Translations under genes and position numbers: made by a program | Notes under the pieces: generated by a model | Database searches by the model: none | What the model was told of the DNA's origin: nothing | What the model saw: the letters and a program-made list of their open reading frames with translations, nothing else | NCBI RefSeq assembly: GCF_003334335.1 | Contig: NZ_QOWQ01000073.1 | DNA from: Escherichia coli | Lineage (GTDB): Bacteria > Pseudomonadota > Gammaproteobacteria > Enterobacterales > Enterobacteriaceae | Length of the DNA stretch: 7,140 nucleotides | Strand: one strand, 5' to 3' | Part shown: positions 1,761 to 7,140 of the stretch, one piece after another | Layout: every line of letters begins with the position of its first letter | Numbering within the stretch: position 1 is the first letter of the stretch

Positions 1761-3251
1761 TTATAAGCCAAAGGATTGCTCATGCCATCTTATCAGTTTC
1801 TGGCTGTAGCACGCATTCAGTTCAGGCAGCGTGATATTGTTTATTTCGGAAAGCAGGACATAGGTGGTTTTTCCTTCCTGCACGACAGAGAGCCTGAGTT
1901 GAGATGCAAGAATGTTCAGCAGGACGTTCAGCTTTTTCCTGTTCCGGAACCGGCCCGGGCCACACTGGAGAATATAATTTTTCCTGACACGGGGCGGGCA
2001 TTCTCCGCGGCACTCCTCAATGAGCCAGTCGAGCAGCTCCCGGGCGTCCTGCAGCTGCAGTTCAGATTCGTCAGGTAACGCAAATAATTTTTTATATTCA
2101 TCTGTGTACCACGAACTTATTACGACAGCAGACGTCATGATATCGGCAGAGATTTTCCCTTCACCCTGACTGAAATACTGCAATAACGCAGCAATTCTCG
2201 CAATGTTTTCTGTTTTTTTTGAAACATGCCCCCGAAACTGGCTTAAGGGTCCGGAAGGAGACAAATCCTGCTCCAGAACATTATAGTGATCAATAAATAT
2301 TTTTTGCGCTTCAGGAGAAAAATGCAGACAATAACGTTCATCCTTACTGGATTTTTCAATACTGCCTCTGGCCAGTTCCATTAATCGTTCATGAAATGCC
2401 GTTAATGATCCTCCCGGGGTCACAGCTCCGTTAATAAAGCGTTTCCCCTGCGTGGTGGCAGGTTTACTGATTAGACAACGGGCAAGAAAACCACTGTCCC
2501 TGGCAACAGAACCTTTTCGCTCCATATATCGGTCAAAAAGACCGGGTTGTACCATGAGGGATAATGTCATTCTAGCATTTTCAATCATCTGTTCGGGTTC
2601 ATTCTTTCTGTCCACCGACAATACGGAGCCATCCCACATTTTGTTAATAAAAGGCAGCTCAGACAGGGTATACCCATCAAATATTATACCGGCTTCATCA
2701 GACATGATACCCACTGAACGCCACTGACCACAAAGCTGATCTTTAATTGCTGCTGTCGTGGCATCATTAAAAATGAATTTATATCTTACAGGTTTTTCCC
2801 CTCTGTTTTTCTGAAGCGCTTCCAGTTGTCTGAGCGTTTCTGACTCATCCGCGCCTTTGCGGAGTTCTTTATTCAGTTTTGACAACAATGCTTTTTTCTG
2901 CGCCTTTAAAAGCTCTTCCTTATTTTTCCATATCGTCAGTTCATTTTTGTGTCTGGAATATAACAGCATCTCCTGCTGGTACAGGGGCTCCATTAATAAT
3001 TTGTCCACTGCGGTTTTTCGTTCTCCGGACTCAGCAAGCGTCAGTAAGAAAAGAGAAACCGGCCCCCGCAGTGTATTCAGTCTGCAGACATCAATCAGAT
3101 TCTGGCAGACAAGTGAAACAGCGCCCAGGGCAGATGCTGCCACAAGCCCCAGGGGAGCCTGCGTGATTTGCTGAGCTTCAATAACGGCATCACGAATGAG
3201 TGGAGGCAGCGAGCTCAGGGGAAACTCATCAGGATACTGAAAGTATGGCAT
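1761..3251 (-). CDS. YfjI-like DUF3987-domain protein (mobile-element associated, possibly replication-related), 496 aa
   Basis: Minus-strand ORF 1761..3269. I start it at the ATG at 3251 (MPYFQYPDEF...) because a GAGGT Shine-Dalgarno sits 5 nt upstream on the minus strand. The N-terminal region (FPLSSLPPLIRDAVIEAQQITQAPLGLVAASALGAVSLVCQNLIDV) resembles DUF3987/YfjI proteins as I recall them. The many short ORFs overlapping it are antisense or alternate-frame artefacts. Confidence 0.8.
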   Translation of the reverse strand: MPYFQYPDEFPLSSLPPLIRDAVIEAQQITQAPLGLVAASALGAVSLVCQNLIDVCRLNTLRGPVSLFLLTLAESGERKTAVDKLLMEPLYQQEMLLYSRHKNELTIWKNKEELLKAQKKALLSKLNKELRKGADESETLRQLEALQKNRGEKPVRYKFIFNDATTAAIKDQLCGQWRSVGIMSDEAGIIFDGYTLSELPFINKMWDGSVLSVDRKNEPEQMIENARMTLSLMVQPGLFDRYMERKGSVARDSGFLARCLISKPATTQGKRFINGAVTPGGSLTAFHERLMELARGSIEKSSKDERYCLHFSPEAQKIFIDHYNVLEQDLSPSGPLSQFRGHVSKKTENIARIAALLQYFSQGEGKISADIMTSAVVISSWYTDEYKKLFALPDESELQLQDARELLDWLIEECRGECPPRVRKNYILQCGPGRFRNRKKLNVLLNILASQLRLSVVQEGKTTYVLLSEINNITLPELNACYSQKLIRWHEQSFGL

Positions 3252-4084
3252 AATGACCTCACAACACACAGAACATAAAGTACCGCAACTATTGCTACTA
3301 ATAGCAAAAATAGCAGCAGAATCAATACAGGATAAAAATTTCTGTCGATTTTCAGATTAAATAATAACCATTCGGTATTTTGTCGCTAAAGAATGTTAGA
3401 ATGAATCTGTGCGTCTACGGGCGCTCTCCGGAACACACATGTTGATTAATTTTCACACAACAACGTACCAGCAAAAAGCATCATCCAGGGTATTGCAGGT
3501 ACGGGTTTCCTGCCGGGAATAAACATAAACAGTTTCCCCGGAGTAACGCTTTCAGAAAACTGCCCTCCTGAAGAAGAATAAAATAAAGAAGATGACAGTT
3601 CCTGCACTGAATGCTGAGTACAATATTCTATGGACAGGATGACATTTTTATAAATAACAAAAACCATTTAATACTGATACATCAATAAAATACTTCCTCC
3701 CTGCTGACACAGATAAAATGCAACATTTTTTCTTCAAATACTTCTGTATAATCGCCAGCCAATGATGAGAATGGATTAAAATAACACTTCTTCGACAAAC
3801 ACAAAAACCAGCCTTCATTTTCACATCATCATCCAGTTTTAATTAAACCCTGACGAGCGACAGTATTTCAGTTCAGGAATTAAAAGCCAGCTATTACTCA
3901 GTAAAAACACCACCAACTAATAATATCTCAGCAGATATTTCCTGACCAGGATGACACATTTATTAAAGATTTTTAACAGGACACTTCACATTACTGAACG
4001 CTATTCCGACAGTATCACTACACAAATAAAAAAGGGAACTGGATAAATATTCATGCCGGAAGAATGGTGTAACAAAAGCATTTA

Positions 4085-4221
4085 ATCATTACGTGCGTAT
4101 TCCTCTCTATTCGATCACGGTTTGGCCAAACCGTGATCGATTCAGATGCCATTTTGCAAGTACGCATGACCCGGAAGGGAAACACTTAACAACATGGTAT
4201 CAACAGATATCATTACGTGCG
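4085..4221. repeat. 13-bp perfect direct repeat ATCATTACGTGCG (4085-4097 and 4209-4221) bracketing the 30-bp palindrome
   Basis: Read directly. Both copies are identical over 13 bp with similar T/C-rich tails (TATTCCTCTCTAT vs CACTCTTAT). They are 124 bp apart. Confidence 0.85.
4111..4140. repeat. 30-bp perfect palindrome TCGATCACGGTTTGGCCAAACCGTGATCGA with two symmetric GATC sites (candidate operator or RNA hairpin)
   Basis: The sequence equals its own reverse complement over exactly 30 bp (checked base by base); it does not extend, since 4110 and 4141 are T and T. GATC at 4113-4116 and 4135-4138 are the only GATC sites in the 3270-4540 spacer. Confidence 0.9.
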
Positions 4222-4357
4222 CACTCTTATAAAAATACACAGCAGAAGCAAGATAACTCTAAACGTAAATTTAATATCTCCCACTGACTGCCCCGACAAT
4301 ATACTGAAAAATACTCACCTCAGTAAACATAAACACACCTGATAATCAGGCTGCAAG

Positions 4358-4441
4358 ATGAATATTTTTCTCCTTTACGGAGTAATCAGCCTGCTGTTTA
4401 ACAATAACCGCGTATTTTCATGGAAGGATATCACCCAATAA
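4358..4441 (+). CDS. Candidate small ORF, 27 aa (MNIFLLYGVISLLFNNNRVFSWKDITQ); possible leader peptide or small hydrophobic protein
   Basis: ATG at 4358 to TAA at 4439-4441, verified codon by codon. Hydrophobic N-terminal half. A weak AGG lies 7 nt upstream and a 13-bp palindrome CCTGATAATCAGG (4338-4350) sits just before the start. A terminator-like hairpin follows about 85 nt downstream. The ORF is too short for statistical support. Confidence 0.15.
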   Translation: MNIFLLYGVISLLFNNNRVFSWKDITQ

Positions 4442-4527
4442 CGGATAACTCCTGCCCTCCTTCATGTTAATACGCAACATCCCCATCGATTCCAAACAAT
4501 TTCAGACAGATATTATCTCCGTGAATC

Positions 4528-4566
4528 CCCCGCCACCTTTCCGGTGTGCGGGGTTTTGTCTTTTTT
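4528..4566 (+). terminator. Intrinsic (rho-independent) terminator-like hairpin plus U-tract, immediately upstream of the GTPase start codon
   Basis: GC-rich stem 4528-4537 (CCCCGCCACC) pairing with 4543-4553 (GGTGTGCGGGG) with one bulged T and a 5-nt loop TTTCC, followed by TTTTGTCTTTTTT (4554-4566). The GTPase ATG is at 4583. Confidence 0.6.
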
Positions 4567-4582
4567 CACCGGGAATACATGT

Positions 4583-5455
4583 ATGAATCCGTCTGATGCC
4601 ATTGAGGCAATTGAAAAACCACTTTCTTCCCTGCCTTACTCGCTTTCCCGTCACATCCTGGAACATCTGCGCAAACTCACCAGTCACGAACCCGTGATTG
4701 GCATTATGGGTAAAAGCGGGGCCGGTAAATCCTCACTCTGTAATGCACTGTTTCAGGGGGAGGTCACCCCGGTCAGTGATGTTCACGCCGGCACCCGGGA
4801 AGTGCGGCGCTTCCGTCTGAGTGGCCACGGTCACAGCATGGTTATCACTGACCTGCCCGGGGTGGGCGAGAGCCGGGACAGGGATGCAGAGTATGAAGCC
4901 CTGTACCGTGACATTCTGCCTGAACTGGACCTGGTGCTGTGGCTGATTAAAGCCGATGACCGGGCCCTGTCTGTGGATGAGTATTTCTGGCGACACATCC
5001 TGCAGTGCGGACATCAGCAGGTGCTGTTTGTGGTGACACAGGCCGACAAAACGGAGCCCTGCCATGAATGGGATATGGCCGGCATTCAGCCCTCTCCCGC
5101 ACAGGCACAGAACATTCGCGAAAAAACGGAGGCGGTATTCCGTCTGTTCCGGCCTGTACATCCGGTTGTGGCCGTATCGGCCCGCACCGGCTGGGAACTG
5201 GATACGCTGGTCAGTGCGCTCATGACAGCGCTTCCCGACCATGCCGCCAGTCCCCTGATGACCCGCCTGCAGGACGAGCTGCGCACGGAATCTGTCCGCG
5301 CTCAGGCCCGTGAGCAGTTTACCGGTGCGGTGGACCGGATATTTGACACAGCGGAGAGCGTCTGTGTTGCCTCTGTTGCACGCACGGTTCTGCGTGCCGT
5401 CCGTGACACAGTGGTCTCTGTTGCCCGCGCGGTATGGAACTGGATCTTCTTCTGA
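4583..5455 (+). CDS. yeeP: YeeP/YfjP/YkfA-family GTPase of cryptic prophages/islands (ribosome-binding GTPase-like), 290 aa, apparently intact
   Basis: ORF 4544..5455. Start set at ATG 4583 (MNPSDAIEAIEKPL...) with a weak GGGAA 7 nt upstream; GTG 4544 is an alternative. P-loop GKSGAGKSS (G1), DLPGVGE (G3, DxxG) and TQADK (G4-like) are present. Its position directly upstream of the Ag43 gene matches the yeeP-flu arrangement in E. coli K-12 as I recall it. Confidence 0.85.
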   Translation: MNPSDAIEAIEKPLSSLPYSLSRHILEHLRKLTSHEPVIGIMGKSGAGKSSLCNALFQGEVTPVSDVHAGTREVRRFRLSGHGHSMVITDLPGVGESRDRDAEYEALYRDILPELDLVLWLIKADDRALSVDEYFWRHILQCGHQQVLFVVTQADKTEPCHEWDMAGIQPSPAQAQNIREKTEAVFRLFRPVHPVVAVSARTGWELDTLVSALMTALPDHAASPLMTRLQDELRTESVRAQAREQFTGAVDRIFDTAESVCVASVARTVLRAVRDTVVSVARAVWNWIFF

Positions 5456-5526
5456 ACCTGTTGTGGATGATGTCCTCCTTGCCTCTGAGTCTGCTCACAA
5501 AAGCGCTGTTTTCGTTACTGTCTCTC

Positions 5527-5555
5527 TTGTCCGTGCAATAGCTTGATAATAGAAT
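5527..5555 (+). promoter_or_regulatory. Candidate sigma70 promoter for agn43/flu (-35 TTGTCC, 17-bp spacer, -10 TAGAAT)
   Basis: TTGTCC at 5527-5532 and TAGAAT at 5550-5555, separated by 17 bp. The predicted start site is about 5562, at the first GATC, which fits the known overlap of the promoter with the OxyR/Dam site. Not experimentally positioned here. Confidence 0.45.
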
Positions 5556-5560
5556 AAAAC

Positions 5561-5596
5561 GATCGATACCTATTTTATCGATCGTTAATATCGATC
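5561..5596. promoter_or_regulatory. Ag43 phase-variation switch: three clustered Dam GATC sites (5561-5564, 5580-5583, 5593-5596) within the presumed OxyR binding region
   Basis: Sequence CGATCGATACCTATTTTATCGATCGTTAATATCGATCGTT read directly, about 190-230 bp upstream of the Ag43 start codon. Three GATC sites inside the OxyR operator are the established hallmark of the agn43 Dam/OxyR epigenetic ON/OFF switch. Confidence 0.8.
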
Positions 5597-5760
5597 GTTA
5601 TGCTAATAATAACTCCTGTTAGCAACGTGCACAGATACACACAGACATGAGATTCAGGGAACAACAGAGCCACACGTCAGAAACTTCCGTCAGCCGGACC
5701 TCCGGCACTGTAACCCTTTACCTGCCGGTATCCACATCTGTGGATACCGGCTTTTTTATT
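5562..5760 (+). ncRNA. isrC: agn43 5' leader / IsrC-like small RNA (promoter-proximal transcript ending at the leader terminator)
   Basis: Inferred: a transcript starting near 5562 from the candidate promoter would end at the strong terminator at 5724-5760, giving a product of about 200 nt. In E. coli K-12 the sRNA IsrC is annotated between yeeP and flu, as I recall. The ends are not determined from sequence. Confidence 0.4.
5724..5760 (+). terminator. Intrinsic terminator in the agn43 leader (12-bp perfect stem, 4-nt loop, T-run)
   Basis: GCCGGTATCCAC (5724-5735) pairs perfectly with GTGGATACCGGC (5740-5751), loop ATCT, followed by TTTTTTATT (5752-5760). It lies 29 nt upstream of the Ag43 ATG. 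Confidence 0.75.
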
Positions 5761-5788
5761 CACCCTCACTCTGATTAAGGAAATGCTG

Positions 5789-7140
5789 ATGAAACGACAT
5801 CTGAATACCTGCTACAGGCTGGTATGGAATCACATTACGGGCGCTTTCGTGGTTGCCTCCGAACTGGCCCGCGCACGGGGTAAACGTGGCGGTGTGGCGG
5901 TTGCACTGTCTCTTGCCGCGGTCACGTCACTCCCGGTGCTGGCTGCTGACATCGTTGTGCACCCGGGTGAAACAGTGAATGGCGGAACACTGGTAAACCA
6001 TGACAACCAGTTTGTATCCGGAACAGCTGATGGCGTGACTGTCAGTACCGGGCTTGAGCTGGGGCCGGACAGTGACGAAAACACCGGCGGGCAATGGATA
6101 AAAGCGGGTGGCACAGGCAGAAACACCACTGTCACCGCAAATGGTCGTCAGATTGTGCAGGCAGGAGGAACTGCCAGTGATACGGTTATTCGTGATGGCG
6201 GAGGGCAGAGCCTTAACGGACTGGCGGTGAACACCACGCTGGATAACAGAGGTGAGCAGTGGGTACACGGGGGAGGGAAAGCTGCCGGTACAATTATTAA
6301 CCAGGATGGTTACCAGACCATAAAACATGGCGGACTGGCAACCGGAACCATCGTCAACACCGGTGCAGAAGGTGGTCCGGAGTCTGAAAATGTGTCCAGC
6401 GGTCAGATGGTCGGAGGGACGGCTGAATCCACCACCATCAACAAAAATGGCCGGCAGGTTATCTGGTCTTCGGGGATGGCACGGGACACCCTCATTTACG
6501 CCGGTGGTGACCAGACGGTACACGGAGAGGCACATAACACCCGGCTGGAGGGGGGTAACCAGTATGTACACAACGGTGGCACGGCAACAGAGACGCTGAT
6601 AAACCGTGATGGCTGGCAGGTGATTAAGGAAGGAGGAACTGCCGCGCATACCACCATCAACCAGAAAGGAAAGCTGCAGGTGAATGCCGGCGGTAAAGCG
6701 TCTGATGTCACCCAGAACACGGGCGGTGCACTGGTTACCAGTACAGCTGCAACCGTCACCGGCACAAACCGCCTGGGAGCATTCTCCGTTGTGGCGGGTA
6801 AGGCTGATAATGTCGTACTGGAAAATGGCGGACGTCTGGATGTGCTGAGCGGACACACAGCCACTAATACCCGCGTGGATGATGGCGGAACGCTGGATGT
6901 CCGCAATGGTGGTACCGCTACCACCGTATCCATGGGGAATGGCGGGGTACTGCTGGCCGATTCCGGGGCCGCTGTCAGTGGTACCCGGAGCGACGGAACG
7001 GCATTCCGTATCGGAGGCGGTCAGGCGGATGCCCTGATGCTGGAAAAAGGCAGTTCCTTCACACTGAACGCCGGTGATACGGCCACGGATACCACGGTAA
7101 ATGGCGGACTGTTCACCGCCAGGGGCGGCACACTGGCGGG
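5789..7140 (+). CDS. flu: Antigen 43 (Ag43) self-associating autotransporter adhesin, 5' part (signal peptide plus passenger beta-helix); runs off the window end
   Basis: ATG 5789 with AAGGA (5777-5781) 7 nt upstream. Translation begins MKRHLNTCYRLVWNHITGAFVVASELARARGKRGGVAVALSLAAVTSLPVLAADIVVHPGETVNGG..., matching the Ag43 N-terminus including the extended autotransporter signal peptide. The frame is open to 7140 and shows the ~19-residue Gly/Thr/Asn-rich repeats typical of the passenger domain. Confidence 0.9.
   Translation, partial: MKRHLNTCYRLVWNHITGAFVVASELARARGKRGGVAVALSLAAVTSLPVLAADIVVHPGETVNGGTLVNHDNQFVSGTADGVTVSTGLELGPDSDENTGGQWIKAGGTGRNTTVTANGRQIVQAGGTASDTVIRDGGGQSLNGLAVNTTLDNRGEQWVHGGGKAAGTIINQDGYQTIKHGGLATGTIVNTGAEGGPESENVSSGQMVGGTAESTTINKNGRQVIWSSGMARDTLIYAGGDQTVHGEAHNTRLEGGNQYVHNGGTATETLINRDGWQVIKEGGTAAHTTINQKGKLQVNAGGKASDVTQNTGGALVTSTAATVTGTNRLGAFSVVAGKADNVVLENGGRLDVLSGHTATNTRVDDGGTLDVRNGGTATTVSMGNGGVLLADSGAAVSGTRSDGTAFRIGGGQADALMLEKGSSFTLNAGDTATDTTVNGGLFTARGGTLA
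6100..7140 (+). repeat. Degenerate ~57-bp (19-20 codon) periodic repeats encoding the Ag43 passenger beta-helix rungs
   Basis: Recurring units such as AGGTASDTVIRDGGGQSL / GGGKAAGTIINQDGYQTIK / NGGTATETLINRDGWQVIKEGGTAAHTTINQKG at roughly 19-20 residue spacing in the translation. These explain the long spurious antisense ORFs in this stretch. Confidence 0.7.

Follow-up and report, generated by a model that had tools for sequence, protein, structure and literature searches.

The agn43 5′ leader of E. coli carries, between its phase switch and the Ag43 start codon, a hairpin with a U-tract (5724-5760) that is very probably a Rho-independent terminator, acting as an attenuator after the switch and as the source of the small RNA IsrC. 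We analysed it in a stretch of 7,140 nucleotides (hereafter the window), in which the adhesin gene is cut by the right end (Table 1). Judged by alignment to the K-12 locus, the hairpin is the already described end of IsrC, so that the window holds an intact copy of a known element and nothing new in principle; the points of some interest beyond that element are a mosaic leader that occurs in two types and a natural allele in which the terminator is weakened. Ag43 drives cell aggregation and biofilm formation, and its gene is a textbook case of epigenetic phase variation; a terminator in the leader would give Ag43 a second control step after the ON/OFF switch. The structure of the hairpin, its position, its match to the K-12 isrC ends and its conservation come from this analysis. 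That attenuation or antitermination at IsrC controls flu is taken from passages of the literature cited below, and the efficiency of termination at this allele, together with what permits read-through, is what we infer.

The probable terminator hairpin and its surroundings

A 51-nt stretch containing the hairpin folds as RNA into a single hairpin (-24.1 kcal/mol, ensemble frequency 0.96), and none of 200 dinucleotide shuffles equalled this stability (z = -8.7). In random windows of the same size generated by a first-order Markov model, a T-run preceded by a perfect stem of 10 bp or more appeared in one of 300. A generic pattern scan returned eight terminator-like sites in the window where 6.8 were expected, so there is no enrichment overall, and the hairpin at 5724-5751 is by far the best of the eight. 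Its G+C-rich stem runs into U6AUU without a spacer, which is the arrangement of an intrinsic terminator, and it would work on the + strand only: AGGTAAAGGG, the sequence after its reverse complement, is not rich in T. By these fold predictions and pattern scans, the hairpin is very probably a genuine and strong transcription stop signal in the agn43 leader.

Table 1. Features of the agn43 leader and its neighbours, with positions in the window
Feature	Position	Strand	Basis or detail
yeeP-like GTPase-family gene, conserved left neighbour	4583-5455	+	RefSeq "GTPase family protein" in a near-identical record; NCBIfam GTPase domain matches
Predicted sigma-70-like promoter of agn43/IsrC	5527-5555	+	TTGTCC, 17-nt spacer, TAGAAT; 9/12 matches in a promoter scan
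Putative OxyR/Dam phase-variation switch	5559-5598	+	GATC at 5561, 5580 and 5593, at the transcript 5′ end
Equivalent of the IsrC (IS102) sRNA, agn43 leader to terminator	5561-5757	+	Rfam RF00124 and MG1655 isrC ends; 197 nt
Variable centre of the leader (type A)	5599-5715	+	Resemblance to the type B centre at shuffle level (z = 0.8)
Small hairpin GCCGG-ACCU-CCGGC	5693-5706	+	Rfam consensus structure and MFE folds; arms repeat the base of the terminator stem
Intrinsic terminator stem-loop	5724-5751	+	GCCGGTATCCAC-ATCT-GTGGATACCGGC; 12 perfect bp, 8 of them G-C; loop ATCT
U-tract TTTTTTATT	5752-5760	+	TTTTTT at 5752-5757, then ATT to 5760; annotated K-12 IsrC 3′ end at 5757
agn43 Shine-Dalgarno AAGGA	5777-5781	+	7 nt before the ATG; read from the sequence
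agn43 (Ag43 autotransporter adhesin) CDS, cut by the window end	5789-7140	+	NF033177 auto_Ag43; RefSeq start

The initial annotation had described a perfect 12-bp stem with a T-run, and this is what lies at 5724-5757, with 12 of 12 positions paired and the z-score given above. Its distances need some adjustment. The stem ends 37 nt before the Ag43 ATG at 5789; measured from the T6 run the gap is 31 nt, and from the whole of TTTTTTATT it is 28 nt. The 29 nt originally given results from counting from 5760 itself. Likewise, the element had been drawn as 5724-5789, of which the first base is indeed the start of the hairpin and the last already belongs to the Ag43 ATG.

Upstream of the hairpin, the block around the -10 region (TAATAGAATAAAACGATC) is kept in both leader types described below, and the 5′ end of MG1655 isrC maps 6 nt downstream of the -10 hexamer. 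The layout is that of a Dam/OxyR switch, with three GATC sites within ~35 bp over the transcription start and a spacing equal to that of K-12; among metagenome copies that include the promoter block, three GATC sites are present in 81 of 82 and two in the remaining one. The role of these sites in agn43 phase switching is credited by citing papers to Haagmans and van der Woude (2000) and Wallecha (2002). A minus-strand "terminator" given by the pattern scan at 5558-5586 is a mere palindrome of the first two GATC sites; in the RNA these bases can form a 10-bp hairpin at the extreme 5′ end, or GATC sites two and three may pair instead, as in the Rfam consensus.

Downstream, a promoter scan found no promoter-like site in the 37 nt that separate the hairpin from the ATG, so full-length agn43 mRNA must pass the terminator, in line with the need for read-through that had been proposed. 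The segment TAAGGAAA is conserved across all alleles. The downstream gene had been named as Ag43, and this identity is borne out by NCBIfam NF033177 (E = 9e-239 over 450 aa within the window) and by the RefSeq agn43 start, which is identical in a record that matches window positions 5480-5900 at 100%. Another in-frame ATG occurs at 5783, two codons before the annotated start.

On the left side, record NZ_CP042892.1 is near-identical to the window only from ~4540 on, and base comparison at a fixed offset fails upstream of that point; gene names upstream of ~4540 were taken from the open reading frames and from other records. The yeeP-like GTPase gene is also the neighbour of the leader in K-12 and at type B loci. 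Between it and a YfjI-family gene lies a 1.33-kb A+T-rich stretch (3251-4582, 34-40% G+C) with no annotated feature in RefSeq records, and an Rfam search of 3200-5560 at E <= 1 gave no match; of 5426 E. coli genomes, 1813 retain at least 80% of the length of 3251-4582, and one genome may hold up to 7 copies.

Correspondence to IsrC

The leader matches the Rfam family RF00124 (IS102) over the whole model (window 5559-5764, model positions 1-206 of 206; 255.5 bits, E = 1.4e-49; gathering score 46 bits), and this is the sole above-threshold match when the whole window is compared with Rfam. The leader of K-12 W3110 scores 252.6 bits against the same model. In MG1655 (NC_000913.3), the ncRNA gene isrC (b4435) occupies 2071317-2071511 and the flu CDS begins at 2071539, both in the cryptic prophage CP4-44. 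In a pairwise alignment, MG1655 isrC starts at window position 5561, on the G of the first GATC, and ends at 5757, on the final T of T6, with identity at 172 of 197 positions. The IsrC-like nature of the leader, which had been put forward from the letters alone, is thus borne out by a full-length family match and by both ends of the K-12 gene; the predicted length of 197 nt fits the terminated transcript of about 200 nt that had been expected, and the comparison with the K-12 isrC coordinates, which the initial annotation had suggested, agrees to the nucleotide.

The surroundings correspond as well. The GTPase gene (4583-5455), the RNA (5561-5757) and agn43 (from 5789) follow each other on one strand, and the layout in MG1655 is equal; K-12 IsrC (IS102; RF00124, b4435) likewise lies between the yeeP-like gene and agn43, and its promoter, three-GATC block and terminator are those of the window. 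The window allele differs from that of K-12 in stem pair 8 (U-A instead of U-G), in the loop (ATCT instead of GTTT) and in 4 additional nt between the terminator and the Shine-Dalgarno sequence. The two stems are predicted to be about equally stable (-22.9 kcal/mol in the window vs -22.3 kcal/mol in K-12), and the stem in the window is Watson-Crick paired throughout, so that the earlier description of the element as fully intact holds.

The name calls for some care. The Salmonella island RNA that is also called IsrC forms a separate Rfam family (isrC) and is unrelated to the E. coli flu leader RNA (IS102). The Rfam-based annotation of O157 EDL933 carries both names, with IS102 entered twice.

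Natural variation of the hairpin and two leader types

The hairpin is kept in both leader types and in ~110 metagenome copies, and the changes in it preserve pairing or sit in the loop. In the metagenome copies the loop reads ATCT, ATTT, TTTT or GTTT; stem pair 8 is U-A (as in the window), U-G (as in K-12 and most type B leaders) or C-G; pair 12 is C-G or U-G; and the other pairs are constant save in rare alleles. The U-tract directly 3′ of the stem is conserved in these copies. When the 11 distinct hairpin alleles were tested for covariation, pairing was kept in 98.5% of cells and 8 of the 12 pairs were invariant; no double-sided change relative to the commonest pair was found among them, and covariation was not above the shuffle control. 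The comparative evidence for the stem is, as read from these alleles, strong conservation with pair-preserving changes and not statistical covariation.

One natural allele is weakened: its 5′ arm has a C-to-A mismatch and its T-run is reduced to T5 (-16.7 vs ~-22.9 kcal/mol). It precedes intact ORFs of 1039-1040 codons in four metagenome contigs (L033, L058, L095 and L112) and an agn43 pseudogene in strain AF22 (L011, 342-618). In two genomes the switch and the terminator are both absent and an insertion sequence lies upstream, namely ISEc12 of the IS21 family (L007, 408-615) and ISEc23 of the IS66 family (L009, about 670-711); in L007 the Shine-Dalgarno sequence is the first point at which homology returns. 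Such insertion-bearing copies would escape phase variation and attenuation alike. A search with the pattern CCGG-N20-CCGGCTTTTTTATTCA in one genome per species returned seven unrelated terminators from unrelated bacteria and none from Escherichia, the pattern being too strict to judge the range of the element.

A 421-nt leader query matched 4091 of 5426 complete E. coli genomes, at full length in 1888; the remaining matches begin 5 nt before the hairpin, at query position 240, and the terminator block is present in ~4000 of the 5426 genomes. Alignment of the loci resolved two leader types. Type A, the type of the window and of K-12, was found in 1888 of the 5426 genomes, and type B, which precedes cah, agn43 or genes of the Ag43/Cah family, was found at full length in 3433 (examples are loci L003-L006 and L008, with the centre at about 450-597). 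Types A and B have in common the -10 region and the three GATC sites, and again a segment that starts just upstream of the hairpin and extends over the Shine-Dalgarno sequence and the first codons. Their similarity is far above shuffles in the 5′ block (z = 11) and in the 3′ block (z = 18) and at shuffle level in the centre (z = 0.8), which is ~117 nt long in type A and ~148 nt long in type B. The leader as a whole measures 254-255 nt in type B vs 224-230 nt in type A. Type B leaders (those of cah and its kin, e.g., in O157 strains) thus have the same switch, terminator, U-tract, Shine-Dalgarno sequence and first codons, and they reach the IS102 gathering score, at 72-73 bits, via their two ends only. 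A metagenome scan anchored on the invariant ORF start gave 120 loci, in which both types are present and a third type was not found. The K-12 leader type, the one studied so far, is therefore the minority form, and the unstudied type B is the commoner natural form.

Two leader types that are otherwise unrelated, and most E. coli genomes, keep the terminator and the switch almost without change, which argues, as far as sequence comparison goes, that the attenuation step is under selection. It is a rather doubtful further step, which we put forward tentatively, to regard the leader centre as an exchangeable module flanked by an OxyR/Dam switch and a terminator that are both invariant, in which case "IsrC" would be two sRNAs with a common promoter and terminator, each perhaps with its own trans targets or its own read-through input into Ag43 or Cah. 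If this were true, the name IsrC would cover two different small RNAs.

Proposed attenuation and competing readings

In the proposed mechanism, phase-ON cells have all three GATC sites methylated and OxyR excluded; transcription would then start at ~5561, and every transcript from there would meet the terminator at 5724-5760. Stopped transcripts would yield the ~197-nt RNA that is IsrC (IS102), and read-through transcripts would carry the Shine-Dalgarno sequence and the Ag43 ORF. An attenuation step would in this way be added to the epigenetic ON/OFF switch, with the leader-derived sRNA as its by-product or co-product. Leader-level control of agn43, which the initial annotation gave as established, is indeed described in the literature: a passage in PMC5389530, which cites Wallecha et al. 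(2014), puts flu/agn43 under the control of attenuation or antitermination at IsrC, and an entry in PMC5811629 reads "IsrC sRNA (flu gene attenuation)". What counts against the attenuation model is the abundance of Ag43 in ON cells, since so stable a hairpin, backed by a good U-tract, would be expected to terminate efficiently.

The arrangement has well-known parallels. In the trp and pyrBI leaders and in riboswitch expression platforms, as here, an intrinsic terminator lies between the promoter and the start codon and read-through is needed for expression; and in 5′ UTR-derived sRNAs made by premature termination (Adams et al. 2021, PMC7815308), the stopped product is likewise a stable short RNA. 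Unlike in the trp, pyrBI and riboswitch attenuators, we could not demonstrate an antiterminator structure, a leader peptide or a ligand-sensing domain in the agn43 leader, and the main control of agn43 is an epigenetic switch at the promoter. For neither leader type did nascent-RNA folds, compared with dinucleotide shuffles, give a cis antiterminator above chance. The terminator 5′ arm of type A finds its best upstream partner in the CCGGC of the small hairpin at 5693-5706 (-14.2 kcal/mol vs a shuffle mean of ~-9.5), which is equalled by 3-4% of shuffles and hence marginal, and the total pairing probability of the arm is not above shuffles. A candidate antiterminator in type B, in which the 5′ arm pairs with an upstream GUGGUUAAUGGC at a probability of 0.9-1.0, was rejected, as 51-60% of shuffles were as good.

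Among the alternatives to attenuation as the main role, the one that fares best, unlikely as it is, holds that the terminator mainly makes a trans-acting sRNA, IsrC, with targets of its own, and attenuates agn43 only in second place. In the MG1655 annotation IsrC is an ncRNA gene in its own right, its knock-down by dCas13a led to a 6.2-fold change in lycopene yield (PMC10783499), and types A and B differ exactly where a seed region would lie. An IsrC-directed knock-down would, however, also strike the isrC-flu mRNA, and no target is established, the function of IsrC in trans being called unknown in papers or given only as an IntaRNA prediction. A trans-acting role is, moreover, compatible with attenuation and does not exclude it.

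Less probable still is an added role as an insulator, by which the hairpin would also shield agn43 from transcription of the upstream island (the yeeP-like GTPase gene) and so keep OFF cells OFF. The same-strand GTPase gene stops at 5455 with no terminator found by the scan before the leader, and the order of GTPase gene, leader and adhesin gene is constant at all loci examined; an insulator would nevertheless be expected upstream of the promoter, whereas the hairpin sits downstream of it and would halt the gene's own transcripts too.

We give very little credence to a ribosome that, by translating a leader ORF (5647-5778), would set read-through across the terminator as in pyrBI attenuation. 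This 43-codon ORF does cross the terminator and stops at a TAA that lies within the agn43 Shine-Dalgarno sequence. None of the three frames is closed by a stop codon in the hairpin, each allele examined has a terminator-crossing ORF that begins with ATG, and that of K-12 runs in frame into Ag43. Such crossing ORFs are, however, also present in 40-82% of leaders with a shuffled centre, their start positions and frames differ among alleles, and no ATG among them has a Shine-Dalgarno sequence upstream; a pyrBI-type leader peptide was accordingly rejected as a candidate. That the stem-loop mainly stabilises or processes the 5′ end of agn43 mRNA without termination is just as improbable: a passage in PMC5389530 reports stabilised flu mRNA without IsrC, from which it follows that the isrC-flu transcript is processed, but the U-tract right after the stem is conserved and the annotated 3′ end of IsrC coincides exactly with the final U, a hallmark of intrinsic termination.

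Returning to the attenuator as the preferred reading, we looked for its product in the MG1655 3′-end tables of Adams et al. (2021; PMC7815308), which hold no isrC-labelled row and no sense-strand flu row among the rows listed. Because flu is phase variable, this absence is weak negative evidence, and OFF-phase cells may be its cause. The same tables give 3′ ends of antisense RNAs inside flu at MG1655 2072596 (-) and 2074672 (-). If the alleles are collinear, the former corresponds to about window position 6846, a region overlapped by a long minus-strand ORF at 5927-6856.
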